64,000 bases of DNA from Nitrospiraceae bacterium. GTDB lineage: Bacteria > Nitrospirota > Nitrospiria > Nitrospirales > Nitrospiraceae. The stretch's first letter is position 1; each line of letters opens with the position of its first letter. This document shows, piece after piece, positions 30,715-42,177 of this stretch. Position numbers and translations under genes: made by a program. Under the pieces are notes generated by a model. The model saw only the letters and a list, made by a program, of their open reading frames with translations. It was not told the DNA's origin and searched no databases. The stretch is taken from positions 64,001 to 128,000 of the forward strand of contig JBFWWG010000003.1 in NCBI GenBank assembly GCA_050246315.1, read 5' to 3'.

Positions 30715-30820
30715 TAGTTTGAAAATCTCTTCGAGTACGCGCGACCGGAACCGGGGCGATCACGAACGATATCAGAATCGCTTGACGAATGCGGCGTGAC
30801 GCCTGCCGCTTCATCTATCG

Positions 30821-30876
30821 GCACTCAGCTCCCAGCACTCAGCACCTCTGTGTCAGACAGTGTGACCCCGGATGTC
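30821..30876 (+). repeat. Heptamer tract GCACTCA plus conserved site gtgaccccggatgtc
   Basis: gcactca-gctccca-gcactca-gcac, then the site at 30862-30876. Confidence 0.65.
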
Positions 30877-30961
30877 CCAACGGCCCGAACAGAAGACGAG
30901 CCCACCCATCGTAAGCCACTGATAAAATAGACGATCCCAGGCTCTCACCTGGTCGCTTCGC

Positions 30962-30980
30962 TGTGACCTCGGATGTCACA
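30962..30980 (+). repeat. Conserved site tgtgacctcggatgtcaca (palindromic arms)
   Basis: TGTGAC-N7-GTCACA; same core as 30862, 33611 and 34539. Confidence 0.6.
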
Positions 30981-31029
30981 GGCCGGCATTACAATGAGGC
31001 TGAATGAGACAATCAGATGGGAGGATGCC

Positions 31030-31464
31030 ATGGTGTCATTCTGTCTCGCAGTCCTATTCATCCTACTCGGCTCCGCTGCGTCGCAGGCCGAGGAGCTCGG
31101 CAATCTAAGCCCAAATCCTTTCGCCTTGGACTCGACCAGCAATCCATTCGGCAAAGGCAGTCCCTTCGCCCCGAACGGTATCAACAATCCCTTCAGCCCC
31201 TACGGCAGCCCCTTCAGTAACCAATCGGCGACCAATCCCTTCGCGACCGATGCCCCGCGCTTGTACGACCAACAGGGCCACTACCGCGGCAAGCTCAGCG
31301 CCAACCCCTATGATCCCGATTCGACGAGCAATCAATGCGGTCGTTACGGTTCGGCCTTCTCGCCGGATTCCCTCAACAACCAGTTCGGCGCGGGGAGCCC
31401 ATACCGCTACGATTCACCGAACAATCCGTTCGGCACCGGTTGGCGCATCGAAACAGGACGTTAA
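31030..31464 (+). CDS. Secreted hypothetical protein with NPF/YGS repeats
   Basis: GGAGG RBS, signal peptide, internal duplication LS.NP...DSTSN..G. Confidence 0.7.
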   Translation: MVSFCLAVLFILLGSAASQAEELGNLSPNPFALDSTSNPFGKGSPFAPNGINNPFSPYGSPFSNQSATNPFATDAPRLYDQQGHYRGKLSANPYDPDSTSNQCGRYGSAFSPDSLNNQFGAGSPYRYDSPNNPFGTGWRIETGR

Positions 31465-31471
31465 CGTGAAG

Positions 31472-31552
31472 TCAGTCCTCGGCACTCAGTCCTCAGTCCT
31501 CAGTCCTCAGTCCTCAGTCCTCAGTCCACAGTCCTCAGTCCACAGAACTCAG
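31472..31552 (+). repeat. Tandem heptamer repeat TCAGTCC
   Basis: Six perfect consecutive units at 31486-31527 plus degenerate flanking units. Confidence 0.95.
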
Positions 31553-31567
31553 AAGGGGAGGCAGACC

Positions 31568-31777
31568 ATGAAACGCTTCATCCTGGGCTGTTTGGTCGGC
31601 GGACTCTTGATGGGAGGCATCAATTCCTTGGCGGAGACGGGCAGCGTGGGCCGTTCGCCCAAGCAACAGCAATTCGACTATTTTCGACAACGGCACCAGC
31701 AGCTCGACATCCAGCGCATGCGCCAACTCATGGACCGGCAGGCGCTGGAGCGCACCCTGTATCAGAAGCCCTGTTGA
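31568..31777 (+). CDS. Small secreted hypothetical protein
   Basis: GGAGG RBS; signal MKRFILGCLVGGLLMGG. Confidence 0.65.
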   Translation: MKRFILGCLVGGLLMGGINSLAETGSVGRSPKQQQFDYFRQRHQQLDIQRMRQLMDRQALERTLYQKPC

Positions 31778-31837
31778 GTCTTCGGCACTCTCCTGACGAC
31801 AGACAGCACATCATTAAGGAGCAGAGCCTATTCTCTC

Positions 31838-31884
31838 GTACTCAGTACTCAGTACTCAGTACTCAGCACCCAGAACTCAGCACT
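31838..31884 (+). repeat. Tandem heptamer repeat GTACTCA/GCACCCA
   Basis: Four perfect GTACTCA units at 31838-31865 plus degenerate units. Confidence 0.92.
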
Positions 31885-31927
31885 ATCCGGCACACCGTAT
31901 GACGATTGACGAAAGGCCGAGGTTGCC

Positions 31928-32191
31928 ATGAGTTGGAATGAAGAAGCCCGGATTCGATGCAGCTTTCGCTTCAAATGTCCGAAGCTCTGGGATCGCCTCC
32001 AGCCGACGGAAGTAGAGGGGGTCCGGCATTGCCCGGAATGCCGGCGTGACGTGCATCTGGCCTTGACCGCGGACACCTTCCGACGGCACAGCGAAGAAGG
32101 CCGCTGCATCGCCGTGCCGGTCTTACGGAATAATCCGGAGGACGATCCGAACGAGCCGGTCTATTGGGTCGGGGAGGTCGTCAACCCATAA
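31928..32191 (+). CDS. Small Cys-rich hypothetical protein
   Basis: GAGG RBS; C.F.FKCPK.W..L......RHCPEC...VH...C motif. Confidence 0.7.
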   Translation: MSWNEEARIRCSFRFKCPKLWDRLQPTEVEGVRHCPECRRDVHLALTADTFRRHSEEGRCIAVPVLRNNPEDDPNEPVYWVGEVVNP

Positions 32192-32317
32192 AAATCCTCA
32201 TGGATTCCCGCTCTAGCGAGTGTGAAGCCAAGGAGGGGAAACGAATGCCAACGCATTGGGAGTAGAGGGGCTAGCCCACATTTTTCATGACGGTTCCCAC
32301 TAAGACGCCAGGCGTCG

Positions 32318-32347
32318 GACCCGTTGCATGGAAAAGAGCAACGGGTC
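32318..32347. repeat. Perfect 10-bp-stem hairpin between convergent genes
   Basis: gacccgttgc-N10-gcaacgggtc. Confidence 0.6.
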
Positions 32348-32409
32348 ACACGGCGGTTGCAGGAGCAGCGCTCATGAATAATGTGGGTGAAGCGTAGGGG
32401 CCGATCCGG

Positions 32410-32673
32410 CTAGCGGTAGACTTCTCGCCGATGCCCGATCTTGACGATTTCAACCACGTGAGCAGAATCATCAACGCCGTAGACAATGCGATAGTCTCCC
32501 TGCCGGATGCGGTATCGCTTGGCTTCGCCTGAAAGCGTTTCACAGCCGGAGGGGTGTGGCTGCTGAGTCAACCCGCGGATGCGGTTGACCACTCGGCGAA
32601 GGTCACCCACCGGAAGTTTCTTGAGCTCCTTTTCAGCCGAGCGTTTGATGACGAGACTATAGAAGTCCGTCAC
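32410..32673 (-). CDS. relE: RelE/StbE family toxin
   Basis: SAEKELKKL, P.P.GC..L.G, YRIRQGDYRIVY, IGHRREVYR; overlaps the antitoxin stop. Confidence 0.92.
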   Translation of the reverse strand: MTDFYSLVIKRSAEKELKKLPVGDLRRVVNRIRGLTQQPHPSGCETLSGEAKRYRIRQGDYRIVYGVDDSAHVVEIVKIGHRREVYR

Positions 32674-32887
32674 GCTTGAGATCCTCGAGCACTTTCTCGA
32701 AAGGTCGCGACGGTTCTTTTGCTCGGCGATCAAAGGCCTCTAGATCGACCGCATCCTCGCGAAGAGATTCGAGCACTGCGGCATTCACCAGGTCCGAGAC
32801 TGAGCGGTCGGTCGTGGCAGCCTTGATCTTGAGGGCACGATACACCTGAGGTTTTAAGTAGATGGTGGTACGGGTGTCGGATGGCAT
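32657..32887 (-). CDS. CopG/RHH antitoxin
   Basis: RTTIYL...ALKIKAA...SVSDLVN; acidic C-terminus; upstream of relE. Confidence 0.88.
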   Translation of the reverse strand: MPSDTRTTIYLKPQVYRALKIKAATTDRSVSDLVNAAVLESLREDAVDLEAFDRRAKEPSRPFEKVLEDLKRDGLL

Positions 32888-32914
32888 GCGGCTCCTCCCA
32901 TGTGACCTTGTTGC

Positions 32915-32943
32915 ATTATAGCAATGTAGCATCATGACATCAA
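32915..32943 (-). promoter_or_regulatory. Sigma70 promoter of the copG-relE operon
   Basis: Minus strand TTGATG-17 nt-TATAAT, then GGAGG and ATG. Confidence 0.7.
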
Positions 32944-32972
32944 AGCGTCACACCAAGAGCGATAAGACAAAG

Positions 32973-33158
32973 GTATTCGGACCTGGCTATCGGGTCTATT
33001 TCGACAAGGATGGTGACAAGCTTGTCATTCTACAAGGTGGAAGCAGAAAGCAACCCCAGCAACAAGCGATCGAGGCGGCGCAAGAGCGATGGACTGACTA
33101 TTGGCGTCGCAAGGCTAGCCAACGGAGACAGATGGGAGGGAGGAGGCAATGGCACTGA
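32973..33158 (+). pseudogene. 5'-truncated addiction-module killer (RelE/HigB-like) toxin remnant
   Basis: FGPGYRVYF..DG..LVIL.GG..K..QQ..IE.A...W.DY matches only the C-terminal half of the family. Confidence 0.75.
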
Positions 33159-33472
33159 CACGCCAATTTAAGGAAACGGTGACGGCACGCGTGCAGCGCG
33201 ATGCTCGTTTCCGAGAGGCACTCTCTACCGAAGCCATCAATGCATATTTAGCCGGCGAGACCGCCGTCGGCAAGGCGATGCTCCGAGACCTCGTCAACGC
33301 AACTGTCGGCTTCGAGGAACTCGCGACCGCGATCAAGAAGCCGAGCAAGAGCCTCCACCGGATGTTGGCACCCCGCGGAAATCCAAGCACCGAAAATGTC
33401 TTCGGCATCATCCGTGCGCTCCAAAAGAAGGCTCACGTCAAGCTCCGCGTCACGGCAAAAGCAGACAGATGA
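33149..33472 (+). CDS. Addiction-module antidote, HTH transcriptional regulator
   Basis: MALTRQFKETV, LRDLVNATVGFEELA, KSLHRML...GNP. Confidence 0.85.
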   Translation: MALTRQFKETVTARVQRDARFREALSTEAINAYLAGETAVGKAMLRDLVNATVGFEELATAIKKPSKSLHRMLAPRGNPSTENVFGIIRALQKKAHVKLRVTAKADR

Positions 33473-33584
33473 GACGACCGGCACCAGCAATCCCTATTTC
33501 TCATGTCCCCTTACTCATGCCTCATTTCCCAACTTAACCCCTCGGCACTTAGTGCTCAGGCCTTCAGGATCACCCCAGAACTCT

Positions 33585-33624
33585 GCACCCAGCACCCAGC
33601 ACTTCCTGGCGTGCCCCCGGATGT
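33585..33624 (+). repeat. 40-bp direct repeat copy 1 (heptamers plus conserved site)
   Basis: 38/40 identical to 34513-34552. Confidence 0.9.
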
Positions 33625-33764
33625 GATAACCATCGGCTATTGTGTGGCCGGGACCGTGAACCTGCTATCCCACCTGTCCCGGAACAGCGACAGGGGTGCT
33701 CTGCCGGCGGCTATCATGAAGTCAGCATGGCGGATACACAGCGCGGGGGAAGGATGCGGAAGGA

Positions 33765-34181
33765 TCAGGATAACACGGTTAGACCGAGAGAACGAAAATC
33801 TTCATCGAAGGAGAAGCAGGGTGAATGATCAAGCAGCGTCGTCACCACAACGAATGAGAGGGCATCACAGAAAGAAAGTTGATGATCGCGAGCATAGGCT
33901 CGAAAAATCTGTTCGGCTGCCTCGCGCACTTGATCTCCATAAGCAACAATATGAAGCCCTGGTTTCACATCGGTGAGAAAGGCAAGGGCAGTTTGGAAGT
34001 TGCGTCGGTAGCGGAGTAGCGTCACCGTTTCACTGATGATGTCCCAGGTCGTATAGAACGTCGTCCCGACAAGGGCCGACTCGGTGGCAAGGGTGCGCGC
34101 TCTTCTATGGTTGGCATCTTTCGGATCAAGGCAGGCGTAGAAGAATGATGTGTCGCAAAACACCAGCTTGGGCACCGGCAT
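33765..34181 (-). CDS. vapC: PIN domain VapC toxin
   Basis: FCDTSFF, D.NH..A, ISET, LSFCDA, SFDEDF. Confidence 0.92.
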   Translation of the reverse strand: MPVPKLVFCDTSFFYACLDPKDANHRRARTLATESALVGTTFYTTWDIISETVTLLRYRRNFQTALAFLTDVKPGLHIVAYGDQVREAAEQIFRAYARDHQLSFCDALSFVVVTTLLDHSPCFSFDEDFRSLGLTVLS

Positions 34182-34447
34182 CAGCGGATCGCGCCACGGG
34201 GTCCATACAGATGGGTTTTCACATGGGAGGAGATCGGAGCCTTCCGACCCCGCGGCCTCGGCAGCTTCTTCATCAGACGAAGCAATCGTCGAGCGGCTGC
34301 CCCCGGTTCTGGCCCGGGTTGCACCGCGCGGAGTTCAGCGACGACTTCATTGTGAACCGTGATCTCAATCCTGGTAGTGGCATCGCGTCGAACCCGACGG
34401 ACTAGTGCGGGTAGCCGCTTACGCGCCTCGCTGATCGAGAGTTTCAT
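34181..34447 (-). CDS. Phd/YefM-like antitoxin
   Basis: MKLSISEARKRLPALV...IEITVHNEVVAEL; stop overlaps the vapC start. Confidence 0.8.
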   Translation of the reverse strand: MKLSISEARKRLPALVRRVRRDATTRIEITVHNEVVAELRAVQPGPEPGAAARRLLRLMKKLPRPRGRKAPISSHVKTHLYGPRGAIR

Positions 34448-34456
34448 GATAACCTC

Positions 34457-34485
34457 AATGTACAATCGTGTACATCGCTTGTCAA
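34457..34485 (-). promoter_or_regulatory. Sigma70 promoter with overlapping palindromic operator for vapBC
   Basis: Minus strand TTGACA-17 nt-TACATT; palindrome atgtaca-atcg-tgtacat at 34458-34475. Confidence 0.75.
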
Positions 34486-34512
34486 TGAACCGGCTACATC
34501 CCCCATTCCTCA

Positions 34513-34552
34513 GCACCCAGCACTCAGCACTTCTTGGCGTGCCCCCGGATGT
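34513..34552 (+). repeat. 40-bp direct repeat copy 2
   Basis: gcacccagcactcagcacttcttggcgtgcccccggatgt. Confidence 0.9.
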
Positions 34553-34559
34553 CACAGCC

Positions 34560-34730
34560 GACTAGAACCTATCTCAAAATCGAAAAAGCTCACTTCTGAC
34601 GATAGTTGGTTGGGCAAATTAAGAGTTCTTAGGCTCGCTTTCACAGGAAAACATCAATTCGTTGATGACTCAGGAACCTTTTGGAATACGCATTCCCGCT
34701 CGACAAGCAATTTTGAGATAGGTTCTAGTC
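34560..34730. mobile_element. Non-autonomous MITE with 21-bp perfect terminal inverted repeats
   Basis: gactagaacctatctcaaaat (34560-34580) / attttgagataggttctagtc (34710-34730); AT-rich, non-coding interior. Confidence 0.8.
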
Positions 34731-34945
34731 TCCTGTGAAGCCATGATCTGGCTGGGCTGAAGACGGCACCATTCCCATGCCTTTTTCCCATTCGCCCAGT
34801 GCCGATCGGCGGCATGAGGAACCCGGCCATTCGTCCATCGGCGCATTCGTGATTTCCGAACCGAAAACAGGTATTATTCGGCGGGCGATTGCCCTTGGGA
34901 ACCTCACCCACCCAGGGATCCACGGGACGCTAATCGCGCAACGCT

Positions 34946-36316
34946 ATGCCCACACCTGAAGACAAGGCCCGCCATACAATCGATCGCATCCTTCATCAAG
35001 CCGGTTGGATTGTTCAGGACCACAGAAGCGCCCATCTTCACGCAGGCCGAGGTGTCGCACTCCGAAACGTTCCCCTCACCAGCGGGCACGGGTTCGCGGA
35101 CTACTTGCTCTATGTCGATGGCAAAGCCGCCGGGGTCATTGAGGCGAAGAAGGAAGGCGTCACGCTGACCGGTGTCGAAGTCCAGGCGGCAAAGTACAGC
35201 GAAGGATTGCCGTTCACCTTGCCGGCCTATACCCGGCCTCTTCCGTTTCTCTACCAAAGCACCGGGATTGAAACCCGGTTCACCAACGGACTTGATCCGG
35301 AACCCCGTAGCCGTCGGACCTTCGCCTTTCACAGACCGGAGACGCTAGCCGAATGGATCGATAAGGCAGGGATCCACTCACCTGGAGCAGCCCGCGAGCA
35401 TACGGCCGCGCTGAAGCGTGAGTCGTACCGCCGCCACTCCACCTTTCGCGGCCTGCTCAGACAATTACCGCCGCTCAAGACCGAAGGTCTCTGGCCCGCA
35501 CAGATCACCGCCATCCAGAACCTCGAAACATCACTTGCGCAGGACCGCCCGCGAGCGCTGATTCAAATGGCCACCGGCAGCGGCAAGACCTTCACCGCCA
35601 TCAATTTCATTTACCGCCTGATCAAGTTCGCCGGGGCCAAGCGCGTGCTGTTCCTCGTCGATCGCGGCAACCTGGGCGATCAGACGTTGAAGGAGTTTCA
35701 GCAGTACGTCTCGCCGTACAACAACTTCAAGTTCACCGAAGAGTTCATCGTCCAGCGGCTCACCAGCAATCAGCTCGACCGCACCGCGCGCGTCTGCATC
35801 GGGACGATCCAGCGCCTCTACTCCATGCTCAAAGGGCGCGAGTTAGCAGAAGAAGATGAAGAGGCTTCCGTGTCCGTTCTCGAACGCCTCTTCAAGAAGC
35901 CAGAACCCATTGACTATAATCCCGCCATTCCCATCGAAACCTTCGACGTCATCGTCACCGATGAATGCCACCGGTCCATCTACAACCTGTGGGCGCAGGT
36001 GTTGGAATACTTCGACGCCTCTCTCATCGGCCTCACCGCCACGCCCAACAAGCAGACTTTCGGGTTCTTCAATCAGAACCTCGTCATGGAATACAACCAC
36101 GAGGAGGCCGTAGCCGACGGTGTGAATGTCAATTACGGCGTGTACCGCATCCGCACCGCCATTACCCAGGCCGGCTCCAAGATCGAAGCCAACCTCACCC
36201 GTGCCGAATGTCTCCGGCAGGCGATTCTGAGTCAGGCTTTTACTGGGAAATTAGTTTGCGTAAATGCCAACAGGGACGGTCGGCAGAGTGCTGACATTAA
36301 GATGGCAAAAGCCTAG
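34946..36316 (+). pseudogene. hsdR: Type I R-M HsdR N-terminal part fused in frame to an HsdS C-terminal tail
   Basis: ADYLL..DG....IEAK nuclease motif, MATGSGKT, DECH, LTATP; later helicase motifs absent; ends NLTRAECLRQAILSQAFTGKLV. Confidence 0.85.
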
Positions 36317-36346
36317 AATAGGCACACTCGGTCAAAAGGATGCTCT

Positions 36347-37135
36347 GTGAGCGAGAATTCAAAAATAGAATGGACTGATGCCACTTGGAACCCGGTTCGA
36401 GGGTGTTCCAAGGTGAGTCCGGGTTGCATGAATTGCTATGCGGAGACGTTCGCGGAGCGTTTTCGCGGTGTGCCCGGCCATCCCTTCGAACAGGGGTTTG
36501 ATCTGCGTCTGGTGCCGGACAAGCTTGCCGAACCCTTGCGTTGGCGAACCCCCAAAATGATCTTCGTCAATTCAATGAGCGATTTGTTCCACGAGCAGGT
36601 TCCCGATGAGTATATCGTCAACGTCGCCCGTGTCATGCGGTTGGCGAACTGGCATACGTATCAGGTCTTGACCAAGCGTTCGGAACGGATGAGAGACCTG
36701 CTCAATCGGAAGCTACAATTTGCCTCCATGCAGCCCAATATCTGGTGGGGGGTGAGCGTCGAAAATAGAAAACATGGCCTCCCGCGCATCGAACAGCTGC
36801 GCGAAGCTCCGGCGCACATCAGATTCTTGTCGATCGAGCCGCTACTTGAAAACCTAGGAACCTTCAGCCTCAAGGAGATTCGTTGGGTGATTGTTGGTGG
36901 AGAAAGTGGCCCTGGTGCGAGACCTATGGCCAAGGAGTGGGTGTTGTCCATCCGTGACTTATGCAGAAAAGCGCAGGTTCCGTTCTTTTTTAAACAATGG
37001 GGTGGTGTCCGGAAGAGTGAAACGGGCAGAACCCTCAATGGAAGAACCTACAACGAATTCCCTGCTCGAAGCACCAGCCCTGTTCCTTCCATCGAAAAGC
37101 TACTTAGTATTCGGGAAGAACTCGAACTCGCATAG
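36347..37135 (+). CDS. DUF5131 / phage Gp37-Gp68 family (radical-SAM-like three-Cys) protein
   Basis: IEWTDATWNP..GC......C..CYA, FVNSMSDLFH, LTKR, SIEPLL, WVIVGGESG, FFFKQWG. Confidence 0.93.
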   Translation: MSENSKIEWTDATWNPVRGCSKVSPGCMNCYAETFAERFRGVPGHPFEQGFDLRLVPDKLAEPLRWRTPKMIFVNSMSDLFHEQVPDEYIVNVARVMRLANWHTYQVLTKRSERMRDLLNRKLQFASMQPNIWWGVSVENRKHGLPRIEQLREAPAHIRFLSIEPLLENLGTFSLKEIRWVIVGGESGPGARPMAKEWVLSIRDLCRKAQVPFFFKQWGGVRKSETGRTLNGRTYNEFPARSTSPVPSIEKLLSIREELELA

Positions 37136-37140
37136 CCTTC

Positions 37141-38217
37141 ATGTCGCCTGAGGACTTCCACGATAAGCCGTTCGATGAGGGTACGCTCACCAAGCTTCAG
37201 ATATTTGAACTTTACGCGCGAGAATGGTTGCCAGTGTTCTTGGCTCCTGAAAAGCCATGGCGCAATGCCATTCATGTATTCGACTTCTTCGCTGGCCCTG
37301 GAACAGATATCCAAAACATTCCCGGCAGTCCACTGAGATTGTTACGACAACTTCAGGAGTATCGGGGAGCCCAGGGGTGGGGGAAAGTCCGCATTCATGT
37401 CCACTTCTATGACGAGGATTCGGGTAAGATTGCCCAGCTTAAACAAAACATTGCTAGTCACGGGCTCCAGCTCCCTAACGTAACTTTCGACATCCAGCCA
37501 TTGCGGTTCGATGATGCCTTTCGGGCTTCCGAATTGACACTGGCGGACTCACAGGCAGCCAAGCTTGTTTTCATCGATCAGACTGGTGTTACGCACGTCA
37601 CGCCCGAGGTGTTTCGCAAGCTGGTGAATGCGCCGACATGTGATTTTCTGTTCTTCCTCTCATCTTCGACACTCCACCGATTTCGTGATCATCCGACCAT
37701 CTGGCAGAAAATTAATCGGCCCGAAGACTACTACCACGTTCATCGTGCAGCTCTTGAGTACTACAGAGGGCTGCTTTCTCCTGGCCAAGAGTATTACCTT
37801 GCTCCGTTTTCAATAAAGAAAGGGGCAAACATTTATGGGCTCATCTTCGGCTCTGCCCACCCGCTTGGCATCGACAAGTTTCTTGAGGTGGTATGGCGTA
37901 AGGATGAATTCAGTGGGGAAGCCGACTTTCCCATCGATCGAGAGAATATTCGCCCCCACCAGCTACTGTTGCCAATGGCCGAGGTTCAGGCGAGCAAAAT
38001 CACGGCTTTCGAAAACGAGCTCGAAAAGCTGCTGAGGGGTGGATGTCTTTCAAGTGAAGTTGATGTTATGAGAGTTTGTTTCGAAAACGGGGTGAAACGG
38101 CAACATGCTAGACCAGTCCTTGCAAAGCTGAAAAAAGAAGGCGTCCTCGATGTAGAGTTCCAGGTTCCAGACGTGCAAAAGATTCGTTCTCCACGACCGA
38201 TTCGTATGAGGAAGTAG
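37141..38217 (+). CDS. tcmP: Three-Cys-motif partner protein (TcmP-like methyltransferase fold)
   Basis: T..KL..F..Y, DFFAGPG, GSPL, FIDQ.G; immediately downstream of DUF5131. Confidence 0.8.
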   Translation: MSPEDFHDKPFDEGTLTKLQIFELYAREWLPVFLAPEKPWRNAIHVFDFFAGPGTDIQNIPGSPLRLLRQLQEYRGAQGWGKVRIHVHFYDEDSGKIAQLKQNIASHGLQLPNVTFDIQPLRFDDAFRASELTLADSQAAKLVFIDQTGVTHVTPEVFRKLVNAPTCDFLFFLSSSTLHRFRDHPTIWQKINRPEDYYHVHRAALEYYRGLLSPGQEYYLAPFSIKKGANIYGLIFGSAHPLGIDKFLEVVWRKDEFSGEADFPIDRENIRPHQLLLPMAEVQASKITAFENELEKLLRGGCLSSEVDVMRVCFENGVKRQHARPVLAKLKKEGVLDVEFQVPDVQKIRSPRPIRMRK

Positions 38218-38221
38218 CGGA

Positions 38222-38308
38222 ATGTCTCCCACGTCCCAGATTGTCCAAAAACACTGGAACTCTGCTTGCCTCGTTTCTCTCGGCGCAGACAACTACTGCA
38301 ACGCCCTC
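38222..38308 (+). pseudogene. Degenerate hsdM 5' fragment 1 with short hairpin insertion
   Basis: MSPTSQIVQKHWN[SACLVSLGADN]YCNAL versus HsdM MNSSAIVQKLWNYCNVL. Confidence 0.75.
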
Positions 38309-38315
38309 CTTACTT

Positions 38316-38372
38316 GCCGTTCGTGAAGGGGACGATTGGCTTGTGATTACGGTGGTGACCCGTTACTATTGA
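38316..38372 (+). pseudogene. 3' remnant of a DUF4258-like toxin
   Basis: AVREGDDWLVITVVTRYY* directly upstream of DUF2283; resembles DUF4258 C-termini. Confidence 0.5.
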
Positions 38373-38398
38373 ACCGTTCGCGCCGTTCAGGAGGCTGT

Positions 38399-38641
38399 AT
38401 GAAACTCACCTACGACCCCCGCTACAACATCGCGTATCTCCGTCTCCATGCCAAGACGGCGGAAGTGGAGACCATTCACGTGAGCGACGAGATTAACATT
38501 GATCTCGCGCCTGACGGCACGGTGTATGGGATCGAACTGCTCAATGCCAACGTGCAACTGGCTCGGGAAGACGCGGGAGAGCTCGTGCTTCAGAACGAGG
38601 CGACCGGCGAACGGACTGCGGTCAAGCTACCGATCGCCTGA
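38399..38641 (+). CDS. DUF2283 domain protein (putative antitoxin)
   Basis: MKLTYDP...AYLRL, D...DGTVYGIELLNA. Confidence 0.88.
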   Translation: MKLTYDPRYNIAYLRLHAKTAEVETIHVSDEINIDLAPDGTVYGIELLNANVQLAREDAGELVLQNEATGERTAVKLPIA

Positions 38642-38671
38642 GCAGCGTCATTCTTGCCGGAAGTTCGAGCC

Positions 38672-38881
38672 ATGAACGCTCAGATTCGGTTGTCAGATGT
38701 GGTGGCGCTGACCGAGGATATTCCTGATCGCGGTTTACTGTGTGGTCAAGTGGGGACCGTGGTGGAATCGCTCAGGCCTGGTGTCTTTGAAGTGGAGTTC
38801 GTGGACAACGAAGGCAGAACCTATGCCATGCTTCCGCTGAAATCCAGTCAACTGCTCGTGTTGCACTATCAGCCTGCGTGA
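38672..38881 (+). CDS. DUF4926 domain protein
   Basis: DVVALTEDIP..GL..GQVGTVVE....FEVEF.D.EG.TYA. Confidence 0.88.
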   Translation: MNAQIRLSDVVALTEDIPDRGLLCGQVGTVVESLRPGVFEVEFVDNEGRTYAMLPLKSSQLLVLHYQPA

Positions 38882-38957
38882 AGGCGTTGCTGCTTCTGTA
38901 TCTCTAGCTGCCCTGATTTTCACGCTCCACGATGTCTCGTTCCCGAGCTGTGATAAC

Positions 38958-39147
38958 ACGAGCCCTTCCGCCATCGTTCAAACACTCTGGAACTACCGCA
39001 ACGTCTTCCGCGACGATGGAATGAGCTATGGCGACTATCATTCGACGCGCTCAGGGCAGGCCCTTCGACGGGTTCGGCAGGCTCACGCCGGCTTGGCTCA
39101 GGACAGGCGTCGAGCAGTTGACGTATCTGCTGTTCCTCAAGGTGGCC
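38958..39147 (+). pseudogene. Degenerate hsdM 5' fragment 2 interrupted by a 70-bp REP insertion
   Basis: (ACG)SPSAIVQTLWNYRNVFRDDGMSYGDY[39039-39108]VEQLTYLLFLKVA matches about the first 40 residues of HsdM. Confidence 0.9.
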
Positions 39148-39178
39148 ATGAGCGTGATTCAATGGTTGAGCTGGTCTC

Positions 39179-39526
39179 ATGAAATTGCCCCATGCTGATC
39201 GCCTAGAGATTCCCAAGGCCAAGGTGGTCCAGTATCTCCTCTCTTCGACTCATCGAGCAGGCAGGGGAAAGGCGGGGTTCTTTTCTGCGTGCGGTTTTCA
39301 GGTGTCCAAATGGGATGTGTTGGCACAGGCGCTTCGGCAACACGCAAGGGACAACGTTGTGAGCTTTACTGAAGACATACCGTTTGGCCTCCGCTATGTG
39401 ATCGAAGGACCGCTTGTCGCGCCGAATGGCCGGCAATTGCAAGTTCGGACGGTCCGGTTTATAGATGAGGGTGGTCAGGTACCACGATTTGTGACCGCCT
39501 ATCCCCTCAAACGGAGGATGCCATGA
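39179..39526 (+). CDS. DUF6883 domain protein (putative toxin)
   Basis: K...YLL...H..G..KA.FF...GF, FG.RY...G....PNG, PRFVTAYP. Confidence 0.8.
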   Translation: MKLPHADRLEIPKAKVVQYLLSSTHRAGRGKAGFFSACGFQVSKWDVLAQALRQHARDNVVSFTEDIPFGLRYVIEGPLVAPNGRQLQVRTVRFIDEGGQVPRFVTAYPLKRRMP

Positions 39527-39759
39527 TTCAGGAGTTAGAAGACGTGATTTTGGAGTGTGACCTTCCCAAGCACGACCTGAGGCGTGGCGATATCGGTACC
39601 GTCGTGCTCATTCATCGGGGCGGTGAAGGCTACGAGGTTGAATTTACGACGTTGAATGGCGAGACCGTGGCGGTCGTGACGCTCTTGGCCGCTCAGGTTC
39701 GTCCGGCTCATCAACGTGAAATTGCCCATGCGCGCGAACTGGCCGGGTCCGCATCGTAA
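39523..39759 (+). CDS. DUF4926 domain protein
   Basis: DLP...L..GDIGTVV.....GYEVEF.TLNG.TVAV; ATGA overlap with DUF6883. Confidence 0.88.
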   Translation: MIQELEDVILECDLPKHDLRRGDIGTVVLIHRGGEGYEVEFTTLNGETVAVVTLLAAQVRPAHQREIAHARELAGSAS

Positions 39760-39800
39760 CAGCGCACCCCTTGAACGCTCCTCGTATGAGGAGAAACCAT

Positions 39801-40013
39801 ATGGCCGAAAAAGTGAAAGTCTGGTTCGATCCGGAAGCGGACTATCTCGAAGTGCAGTTCCGTGAGGCGCCTGGCTTCATGCGGGCGACGGCGCACGACG
39901 CGCTCATGGAGCGGGTCGACGAGCAGGGGCATGTGCTGGGCTTCAGCGTCCTTGGCGTGAGCCGTTTCAAAAAGGATCCTCCTCTGGAAGCTGAACTGAT
40001 GACCGGCTTTTAA
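39801..40013 (+). CDS. DUF2283-like protein
   Basis: VKVWFDPEADYLEV...VDEQG.VLGFS; GAGGAG RBS. Confidence 0.75.
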   Translation: MAEKVKVWFDPEADYLEVQFREAPGFMRATAHDALMERVDEQGHVLGFSVLGVSRFKKDPPLEAELMTGF

Positions 40014-40105
40014 GGCGGGGCAGACGAATCTGACCTGTCCGTGAAACTTCCGACTTCATCCCCGCCCTGGCCTGACGACGCTGTTTCAGCGTTATCCGAT
40101 TTCGG

Positions 40106-41599
40106 ATGAACTCCTCCGCCATTGTCCAAAAACTCTGGAACTACTGCAACGTCCTGCGTGACGACGGGATGAGCTACGGCGACTACGTCGAACAGTTGAC
40201 GTATCTGCTGTTCCTCAAGATGGCGGACGAGAGGACGAAGCCGCCCTACAACCAACCGAGCCCGATCCCCGACAAGTACAGTTGGCAGAGCTTGCTCAAG
40301 AAAGACGGCGACGAACTCTTTGACCACTATCGCCACAGTCTGGAAAAGCTCGGCAACGAGAAGGGTTTGCTCGGCCTGATCTTCAACAAGTCGCAAAATA
40401 AGTTCCAAGATCCCGCCAAACTGCGCCGGCTCATAGTGGACTTAATCGACAGGGAAGACTGGTCGGCGATGAGCGCCGACGTGAAGGGCGATGCGTACGA
40501 AGGCCTGCTCCAAAAGAACGCCGAGGACGTGAAGGGTGGGGCCGGCCAATACTTCACGCCGCGTCCGCTCATTGCCGCAATGGTGGACTGTGTGGCTCCA
40601 AAACCGGGCGAGACGATCTGTGATCCGGCCTGTGGGACCGGCGGCTTCTTGCTGGCCGCGCACGATTATGTGGTGAAGCACAATCCGAATCTGACCAAGC
40701 TTCAGAAGAAGAAGCTGAAGGAAGAAACGCTCAAAGGCTACGAGTTGGTCCAGAGTGTCGTCCGTCTCTGCGCCATGAATCTGCTCTTGCATGGGATTGG
40801 CTCGCAGGAGGACGAGCCTATTGAGGCAGCGGATTCACTCGCCTCCGATCCCGGCGAACGGTTCAACCTCGTACTGACCAATCCACCGTTCGGCAAGAAG
40901 AGCAGCTACACGGTCGTCGGGCAGGAAGGCGAAGTCTCGAAGGAGCGGGAGACCTACGAGCGCGACGACTTTTGGGCGACCACTTCCAATAAACAACTGA
41001 ATTTCGTCCAGCATGTGAAGACCATCCTTGCAGTCAATGGCCGCGCGGCGGTCGTTGTGCCGGACAACGTGCTCTTTGAAGGTGGGGCAGGCGAGACGGT
41101 GCGGCGCAAGTTGCTGCATGATTGCGACGCACACACGTTGCTGCGTCTCCCAACCGGGCTTTTTTACGCCCAAGGCGTCAAGGCGAACGTGCTCTTCTTC
41201 GACAAGAAACCGGCGAGCGAAACACCCTGGACCAAGAACCTCTGGATCTACGATCTTCGCACCAACCAACACTTCACACTCAAGACCAACCCGCTCAAGC
41301 GAGAAGATTTGGACGAGTTTGTGAAATGCTACAACCCGGCGAATCGACACGAACGAAAAGCCACCTGGTCAGAAAAGAAGTCAGACGGCCGCTGGCGCGC
41401 TTACGCCTACGACGAGCTGATCGCCCGCGATAAAGCCAGCCTCGACATCTTTTGGCTCAAAGACGAATCCCTCGAAGCCTCCGACAACCTCCCAGATCCC
41501 GACGTGATCGCCCAGGAGATCGTGGACGATCTGGAGTCAGCCTTGGACCAGTTCAGGCTGATAACCAATGATCTTGGCACAGAACCGCACAGTTCATAG
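40106..41599 (+). CDS. hsdM: Type I R-M N6-adenine methyltransferase subunit
   Basis: GQYFTPR, DPACGTGGFL, TNPPFG, VPDNVLF. Confidence 0.96.
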   Translation: MNSSAIVQKLWNYCNVLRDDGMSYGDYVEQLTYLLFLKMADERTKPPYNQPSPIPDKYSWQSLLKKDGDELFDHYRHSLEKLGNEKGLLGLIFNKSQNKFQDPAKLRRLIVDLIDREDWSAMSADVKGDAYEGLLQKNAEDVKGGAGQYFTPRPLIAAMVDCVAPKPGETICDPACGTGGFLLAAHDYVVKHNPNLTKLQKKKLKEETLKGYELVQSVVRLCAMNLLLHGIGSQEDEPIEAADSLASDPGERFNLVLTNPPFGKKSSYTVVGQEGEVSKERETYERDDFWATTSNKQLNFVQHVKTILAVNGRAAVVVPDNVLFEGGAGETVRRKLLHDCDAHTLLRLPTGLFYAQGVKANVLFFDKKPASETPWTKNLWIYDLRTNQHFTLKTNPLKREDLDEFVKCYNPANRHERKATWSEKKSDGRWRAYAYDELIARDKASLDIFWLKDESLEASDNLPDPDVIAQEIVDDLESALDQFRLITNDLGTEPHSS

Positions 41600-41790
41600 G
41601 GAACCCGGAAGCGGTACCGGAACGCTTTGCATACCGTAGAAAAGGTACCGGGAGTCTTTGTCATCACACAGGGCCTGCAAGCGAACAGTGCAAACCTCGT
41701 CCGCCTTCGGAGCCTGTGGATCCGACGCCCGTGATCCTGGCAGTGACCGGTCCTCACTGCAATTGCTTGTAGATCCGAAAATCGTTTCTC

Positions 41791-41997
41791 TTAGGCCTCC
41801 ACCGTAACCGTCTTGATCGCGGCTTTGATCTTCGACACCACCTCCGGCGGAGGGGCGGACATCTTGTGCGCCACCTTGGCATGGTCGCCCGTCAACCGCA
41901 TCACCTCATCTTCCGTCTCAGCCCGCACCATGAACGCACACCCTCCATTGGGGTCTACATCGAGACAACCAAGTTGTTTGTAGGTTTTCTTGGCCAT
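41791..41997 (-). CDS. DUF1059 small metal-binding protein
   Basis: C.D.....C.F...AETEDEV.....H....H; AGGAGG RBS. Confidence 0.85.
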   Translation of the reverse strand: MAKKTYKQLGCLDVDPNGGCAFMVRAETEDEVMRLTGDHAKVAHKMSAPPPEVVSKIKAAIKTVTVEA

Positions 41998-42039
41998 GAC
42001 GACCTCCTGTCGGTAAAAGGTGGGGACACCGGAATTGCT

Positions 42040-42177
42040 CTAGCAGACTGCGGAAAACCCTCCGTTCATCCTTCGAGGACCTCAGGACGAACGGAGCGGT
42101 GATTGAATAGACTGGTGTTTTCCGATCGTGCTGAGCCTGTCGCAGCACACAAATCGAGTTGTTCCGTCGCCTGCCAG
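42040..42177. repeat. REP-containing MITE-like element (inverted copy of 9837-9974)
   Basis: Ends ctagcagactgcggaaaac / gttgttccgtcgcctgccag; internal REP pair. Confidence 0.75.

Follow-up and report, generated by a model that had tools for sequence, protein, structure and literature searches.

Displaced hsdM starts between cargo cassettes in a Nitrospiraceae type I restriction-modification locus

In silico analysis of a 64,000-nucleotide (nt) stretch of DNA, C3:64001-128000 of the 4.39-Mb genome G000 (the window), revealed a type I restriction-modification (R-M) locus in which the start of the methyltransferase gene hsdM is present three times on the + strand, at 38222, 38958 and 40106. The last copy leads into an intact gene, whose nearest hsdM relatives are labelled Nitrospiraceae, and the two partial copies ahead of it are referred to below as scars. 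In the reading favoured here, cargo cassettes are stacked at the locus with an hsdM start closing each of them, and the stack probably grew through RecA-type recombination within the conserved first 50-500 nt of hsdM. The stack comprises the following features:

36347..37135, + strand: cargo 0a, DUF5131 protein (Pfam; PADLOC PDC-M30B/M41B)
37141..38217, + strand: cargo 0b, partner of the DUF5131 protein (PADLOC PDC-M30A), presumably TcmP; the pair heads an intact hsdM in G201
38222..38317 (end approximate), + strand: hsdM scar 1, an internally deleted former start that carries a 30-nt insert and overlaps the toxin remnant by 4 nt
38314..38372, + strand: 3' remnant (last 19 codons) of a DUF4258-like toxin gene; whole 82-aa gene in G332
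38399..38641, + strand: cassette 1, DUF2283 protein (Pfam; 91% over 568 nt to G332)
38672..38881, + strand: cassette 1, DUF4926 protein (Pfam)
38958..39155, + strand: hsdM scar 2, covering gene nt 1-129, with ACG in place of the lost start codon
39038..39107, + strand: hairpin insert of 70 nt within scar 2, which we take to be REP-like (repetitive extragenic palindromic); same site in G332 and G247
39179..39526, + strand: cassette 2, DUF6883, predicted BECR RNase toxin (Pfam; preprint)
39523..39759, + strand: cassette 2, DUF4926, predicted immunity partner of DUF6883 (Pfam; preprint)
39801..40013, + strand: cassette 2, DUF2283 protein (Pfam)
40106..41599, + strand: intact hsdM, 497 aa, EcoKI-related, with HsdM_N and N6_Mtase (Pfam; match to EcoKI M, E 9e-95)

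Origin of the scars

Two matches of scar 2 to the intact start, 85.9% over 71 nt (E 3.6e-17) and 94.9% over 39 nt, flank the 70-nt insert. The match of scar 1 covers 27 nt (92.6%, E 0.005 against the whole 4.39-Mb genome), and this scar was missed by a nucleotide profile of hsdM. It is confirmed independently by window 36344-38259, which aligns to G201 at 85% over 1,916 nt, the same position being an intact hsdM start there. A whole-genome search for the hsdM start elsewhere gave nothing better than E 0.2. The original prediction, made from the sequence alone, had placed two partial starts, the second with ACG, ahead of the intact gene at exactly these coordinates; Pfam returned the same series of labels (DUF2283, DUF4926, DUF6883, DUF4926, DUF2283, hsdM), and the predicted toxin remnant is accounted for by the whole gene in G332. 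The DUF4258 match of that gene is weak (E 0.0012, below the cut-off).

To judge from their base differences, the scars are displaced starts of other alleles and not local duplicates. Among 79 alleles, the hsdM of the same genome was the best match for 9 of 42 scars, compared with 202 of 210 simulated decayed duplicates; these best-match counts with their simulated control stand in place of a tree, the fragments being too short for one. Scar 1 of the window, other scars with fewer than 30 aligned nt, and L025 and L076 (frame check) were left out of this test. The differences of the scars fall at third codon positions in 436 of 688 cases, 428 being synonymous and 260 non-synonymous, and in scar 2 of the window 8 of the 10 differences from the intact gene are synonymous. 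The earlier statement that the copies are no exact recent duplication, since they differ at synonymous positions, is thus borne out. The leader ahead of each start travels with the cargo and not with the other copies. Scar ends range from nt 41 to nt 504 of the gene, with loose clusters near nt 52-84 and nt 126-144.

Displacement is also indicated by twin loci. The upstream neighbour together with the start is common to another locus for 30 of 74 scars, and the twin is an intact hsdM for 25. All three starts of the window have such twins elsewhere: (i) in G201, DUF5131 and its partner precede a live start that corresponds to scar 1; (ii) DUF4926 followed by a live hsdM start, the counterpart of scar 2, is found in G247; (iii) window 39443-40184, with the live start, the leader and the greater part of cassette 2, reappears in G332 (96.2% over 742 nt), where the start is a scar. 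In G332, which belongs to another genus, this start breaks off at nt 79 and is followed by two further cassettes and a different intact hsdM. The G332 scar is identical to the window's start at 73 of 79 positions, versus 57 of 79 for G332's own hsdM. These twins support the idea, put forward in the original prediction, that each event brings a new start with cargo and leaves the old start as a scar.

Shared junctions and apparent reuse of scars

Junctions between a scar and the cargo behind it are shared between loci in 24 of 77 cases, which form 9 groups. The neighbour upstream of the scar differs in 8 of the groups, one not being judgeable, which places the crossover inside the scar. The plain reading of this pattern would be a crossover between a resident start and an incoming scar-headed cassette, and scars thus appear to be reused as homology arms. 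The junction of scar 2 with DUF6883 is found in G012, G332 and G201, behind four different neighbours. Scar 2, its insert and the DUF6883 junction are common to the window and G332, and the DNA ahead of the start is not. The hairpin insert at nt 81 is common to the window, G332 and G247. Small REP-like palindromes are inserted repeatedly, near nt 60 and nt 81, in the hsdM scars of L022, L029, L035, L051, L077, L118, L123, L125, L126, L129 and L131.

Occurrence of the arrays

The layout is widespread and found in many unrelated bacteria. In the window's phylum, 96 of 401 genomes match the first 50 residues of HsdM. Counted by eye and with G000 included, 22 of these 96 carry at least two same-strand copies no more than 10 kb apart on one contig. 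Several hsdM starts were also found in 5 of 49 hsdM-bearing genomes in the order of G061 and in 3 of 45 in the phylum of G062 (seeds excluded). In genus g35, 9 of 27 genomes have a single copy and none has two; the array rate is therefore lineage-dependent. At least two hsdM starts are present in 23 of the 57 loci that were fetched by the intact gene and have at least 3 kb upstream. A fixed gene order without variable cargo had been named as an outcome that would speak against an array; the cargo between the fragments differs among relatives.

The repeated part of hsdM is its 5' end only. For successive 120-nt bins of the gene, the number of loci with extra matches is 33 (33 of 85 at nt 1-120), 16, 10, 7, 2, 1, 1, 0, 0 and 0, in a set of about 80-85 loci that includes 9 regions picked because they matched. 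A further 34 extra matches in bin 1201-1320 were taken as single genes split by a variable insert, splits near nt 1265-1278 having been seen, though not locus by locus. Extra 5' copies lie upstream of the gene in 62 cases (45 loci) and downstream in 7 (5 loci). In L044 (4246-4377) and in L129 (at 14735, reoriented), the 3' tail of hsdM is repeated downstream of the intact gene with cargo between, an arrangement that is rare.

The usual gene order is hsdR-hsdS-cargo-hsdM, with the scars interspersed in the cargo. The shared cargo pool includes Fic, DarT-DarG, AbiEi-AbiEii, MNT-HEPN, zeta toxin, Schlafen, CBASS, Hachiman, SIR2-HerA, PDC-M21, PDC-M30 and others, the last several of these types being found mostly directly after hsdS, ahead of the first scar. 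Cargo open reading frames (ORFs) came from a simple caller, and Pfam was run on 83 of 115 listed representatives. Loci with the same DNA were dropped (L031 = L022, L074 = L024, L128 = L039, L133 = L043). As a background for G000, a search for same-strand copies no more than 10 kb upstream, covering at least 40 nt of the first 200 nt of each long ORF, was positive for 19 of 1,823 such ORFs, several of them being paralogue pairs; the two other type I systems of this genome have no start repeat. At G000:C8:80208-81251 a second copy of a gene tail (98.9% over 190 nt) lies some 0.9 kb downstream, with a tyrosine recombinase 4 kb away; this is probably an integrated element. In L029 (8663-9573; G001, same genus) two hsdM scars lie in 20 kb without an intact hsdM, and the downstream genes are as in the window.

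A mirror arrangement exists at hsdR. Among the 41 loci holding an hsdR 3' end, 9 contain a total of 10 extra tails of about 90-500 nt, located downstream of the gene, each ending at the stop codon, with the last one just before hsdS; three more loci of a later set (L118, L126, L127) also have tails. The cargo between them consists of addiction module-ParE, MNT-HEPN, RhuM-Fic or Phd-YafQ. Most tails end overlapping the hsdS start or a few bases from it, and only in L080 is the own gene the best match. Both conserved gene ends that face the variable hsdS, the 3' end of hsdR and the 5' end of hsdM, thus collect cassettes.

Assembly of the locus in public runs

The layout is reproduced in assembled contigs of public runs. 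In run X1 a single contig of 5,928 nt spans 36150-42077 with zero differences, and the scars are also covered, again with no difference, by runs X5, X9, X11 and X10, which come from four other studies; each DNA run covering the window was flagged as a possible source of the assembled DNA. Misassembly, which the original prediction had listed as a way for it to fail, was ruled out by this agreement of contigs from five studies. Joints 39743->38399 and 38646->39789 in run X9 belong to an abundant other organism with the cargo order DUF4926, DUF2283a, DUF2283b, which is also found in L086. RNA runs X15, X17 and X19 gave short contigs over parts of the stretch, which are not taken as evidence of transcription.

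Proposed mechanism and alternatives

In the mechanism regarded here as probable, incoming DNA would supply cargo and a new start, and the resident start would stay upstream as a scar. Its best-supported step is spread: a scar on the left and an hsdM start on the right may act as two homology arms, allowing a cassette to enter any hsdM start of the lineage by two crossovers, or by one as a circle, without an integrase. The birth of a new junction would be a rare event of homology-facilitated illegitimate recombination, with an anchor in hsdM and a non-homologous join at the far end. One-step recombination of this kind fits both the polarity of the copies and the variable scar ends. The same process likely takes place at the hsdR 3' end, leaving the tails that overlap the hsdS start. 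Short and diverged scars would persist because long and similar repeats delete the cassette between them.

Several observations weigh against this mechanism or limit it. No excised circle and no joint marking excision between the window's copies was seen among the joints listed for 8 runs (15 of 44 in a first set), in Logan contigs that drop rare forms. A shared junction might in single cases be imitated by independent deletions upstream of the scar, and the comparison of junctions was made across species and not among strains of one species; 53 of the 77 are unique in the sample. Scars farther from the live gene are the more decayed ones in the window, L022, L035 and L042, but not in L051 and L024.

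Other observations concern the birth step. If cassettes were joined in one step from an hsdS-cargo-hsdM donor, some hsdS tails would be expected behind scars, and none of 76 rose above shuffles (best 6.1 vs 6.4 bits; positive controls 60-92 bits). An apparent hsdS tail after the G332 scar was rejected by the profile with a shuffled background. In the cases listed, the match to cargo copies next to hsdS mostly sets in close to the start codon of the cargo, about 20-35 nt past the scar. Five loci have 5' copies downstream of a long hsdM; some of these copies retain both ends but have lost internal parts (L115, L116), and duplication of the whole gene therefore occurs as well.

The absence of hsdS tails, the tight junctions and the decayed near-whole copies make trimming of a whole-gene duplicate by deletion the main rival. 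Here a single crossover or unequal exchange would give two whole hsdM genes around the incoming DNA, perhaps with a second hsdS, and the upstream copy would later lose its 3' part, as far as the cargo's edge, through a microhomology deletion; spread would proceed as above. Besides the tight scar-cargo junctions and the 0 of 76 hsdS tails, this account can draw on decayed near-whole copies with internal deletions in L103, L115 and L116, and on microhomology deletions at the locus itself (the hsdR-hsdS fusion of the window, described below, and the 4-nt overlap of scar 1 with the toxin remnant). The 4-nt overlap may also reflect microhomology at a non-homologous join of the birth step. Against such trimming, no locus with two intact hsdM genes occurs among 104 mapped, and the upstream remnants are nearly all 5' pieces, none longer than 504 nt. 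A two-step birth is considered unlikely, though it deserves to be taken seriously.

Integrative elements may restore the gene that they target, as SXT does at prfC. A site-specific integrase acting in trans on the hsdM 5' end would produce the same geometry of old start, cargo and new start, and erosion of the scars could hide a fixed core beneath their loose clusters of ends. The ends are nevertheless spread over nt 41-504 with no single fixed core, and the same pattern occurs at the unrelated hsdR 3' end. Six tyrosine recombinases are encoded in G000, none of them on contig C3, and no resolvase was matched in the genome. These six, which do find each other in the genome, had no match in the first 86 loci (20 later loci were unscreened and large serine recombinases were not searched); IS110, IS3-type and IS200-like transposases are present in a few loci only. 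Action of an integrase is thus very improbable. The suggestion in the original prediction that the R-M gene serves as an attachment site should be taken in the sense of a homology arm of variable length, and not in that of a recombinase att site.

Insertion with long target duplication, described for R-M genes (Furuta et al. 2010, PMC2853133), would agree with L055, L065 and L079, where the scars are 94-97% identical to the gene of their own locus, which is their best match. As the general source of scars it is largely refuted by the allele counts, by the predominance of synonymous differences and by the leader, which goes with the cargo; later allele replacement of the live start would be needed at most loci, and this origin is hardly credible. 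Least probable of all is retention of the scars chiefly for their translation, either as short couplers or as small HsdM N-terminal peptides with a function: an in-frame start codon occurs in the search window of 67 of 74 scars, 58 are open to the scar end, 19 of the 67 stop no more than 15 nt from the next ORF (counts without a computed background) and most hsdR tails end at or overlapping the hsdS start, but scar 2 of the window has no start, many scars carry frameshifts, stops or hairpin inserts, and coupling would explain at most retention and not origin.

A plasmid vehicle was rejected: 82 of 72,556 plasmid records match, each in one place (none with two copies) and none above 80% identity. 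ComEC is encoded in G000, which makes uptake of naked DNA one possible route. Transduction is another possible route (PMC12829572).

A broader reading is rather doubtful. In it, one type I lineage would offer its near-invariant hsdM start and hsdR end as a universal docking sequence to a recombinase-free, integron-like exchange network, in which scars would be kept as they make cargo mobile, and scar-flanked defence and toxin-antitoxin cassettes would excise and move by RecA between genera and phyla.

Relation to known systems

By analogy, the class of mechanism appears to be one already known from displacement arrays. For arrays of displaced Rhs C-terminal ends, homologous recombination via circles has been proposed (Jackson et al. 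2009, PMC2935791). As described there, an intact gene is accompanied by serial fragments of its conserved part, of variable length, and ends that were once part of the live gene turn up displaced in relatives, as seen here between the window and G332, G201 and G247. In contrast to Rhs, it is the 5' end of hsdM that is repeated, mirrored by the 3' end of hsdR, and not C-terminal toxin tips; HsdM stays a methyltransferase, and the cargo consists of separate genes in a type I R-M operon, from a pool spanning phyla. In the account of type VI secretion system (T6SS) immunity arrays of V. cholerae, displacement by homology-facilitated illegitimate recombination is followed by the spread of ready-made arrays through ordinary recombination, without an integrase (Kirchberger et al. 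2017, PMC5361080). In those arrays immunity genes accumulate and the former effector is deleted, whereas each step in an hsdM array can leave a copy of the anchor, apparently a new arm. Since their cargo is free-standing, hsdM arrays work like the Rhs and T6SS displacement arrays but belong to neither.

Integrons also carry serial small cassettes on one strand, rich in toxin-antitoxin and defence genes. The hsdM arrays share this serial one-strand organization and this content; unlike integrons, they have no tyrosine recombinase nearby, and their boundaries are coding homology of variable length.

Furuta et al. reported near-identical repeats of one target flanking R-M genes, without an integrase, and in both cases R-M-linked DNA is surrounded by direct repeats some tens to hundreds of bases long; the hsdM repeats differ in being different alleles of a gene part and in flanking non-R-M cargo. 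Defence genes embedded in type I R-M systems have been catalogued (Payne et al. 2024, 10.1101/2024.01.29.577857), with the same sort of cargo: PDC-M30, PDC-M21, CBASS, Hachiman, SIR2-HerA, DarTG, AbiE and MNT-HEPN. The words 'recombination' and 'truncated' never occur in the accessible text of that catalogue, which contains neither an insertion mechanism nor scars. No description of arrays of hsdM or hsdR end fragments was found in the literature searched, which included the accessible part of PMC12707154, subscription journals being mostly outside its scope and supplements unopened. What the hsdM arrays contribute is their frequency, the two facing arrays, a direct before-and-after pair and the evidence of scar reuse.

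According to a 2026 paper, little is understood of how chromosomal defence genes move (PMC12829572), and the arrays bear on the embedding of such genes in type I R-M operons in the absence of a mobile element. In this lineage the record is readable: scars mark the borders of cassettes and, in some loci, the order of events, with the displaced start apparently reused as a homology arm. Scars can also serve as a marker for mining candidate defence genes. For annotation they call for caution, short HsdM N-terminal ORFs often being relics.

Remaining cargo and the hsdR-hsdS fusion

In cassette 2, DUF6883 and DUF4926 correspond to a predicted BECR RNase toxin and immunity protein in the accessible text of a preprint (10.64898/2026.08.28.747851). 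The DUF2283 gene of this cassette is without the toxin gene that precedes DUF2283 in L035, L051, L126 and L127.

Ahead of the stack, the remaining R-M genes are reduced to a fusion that had been missed by the original prediction:

34946..36181, + strand: 5' part only of hsdR, about 412 codons, with HSDR_N and ResIII/DEAD (Pfam; profile match r34-1266 of 2847 nt)
36182..36316, + strand: 3' tail of hsdS, fused in frame to the truncated hsdR, joined where both genes read V-E-A

With hsdR truncated and fused to the hsdS tail, the R-M system of the window is dead and the methyltransferase gene is intact. No hsdS match (PF01420) was found on contig C3; in many relatives hsdR and hsdS are whole, in the order R-S-M. 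A deletion joining an hsdR head to an hsdS tail, like that of the window, is present in L046, and an orphan hsdS tail in L023.

Neighbouring repeats and toxin-antitoxin genes

Upstream of hsdR, window 32410-34555 holds a second toxin-antitoxin cluster (ParE-RHH, an HTH pair and PIN-Phd), in which the PIN-Phd pair is flanked by 59-nt direct repeats at 33573 and 34501 (85%). The intergenic spaces of this cluster (30818-34534) contain runs of a 7-nt unit, e.g. 31468-31552 and 31838-31887. About 200 nt before hsdR, window 34552-34738 has 29-nt inverted arms, 93% complementary and 129 nt apart, which are multi-copy by read depth. Behind the locus, window 42053-42166 is a dispersed repeat of 114 nt with 68 BLAST matches in the genome and very high contig depth.

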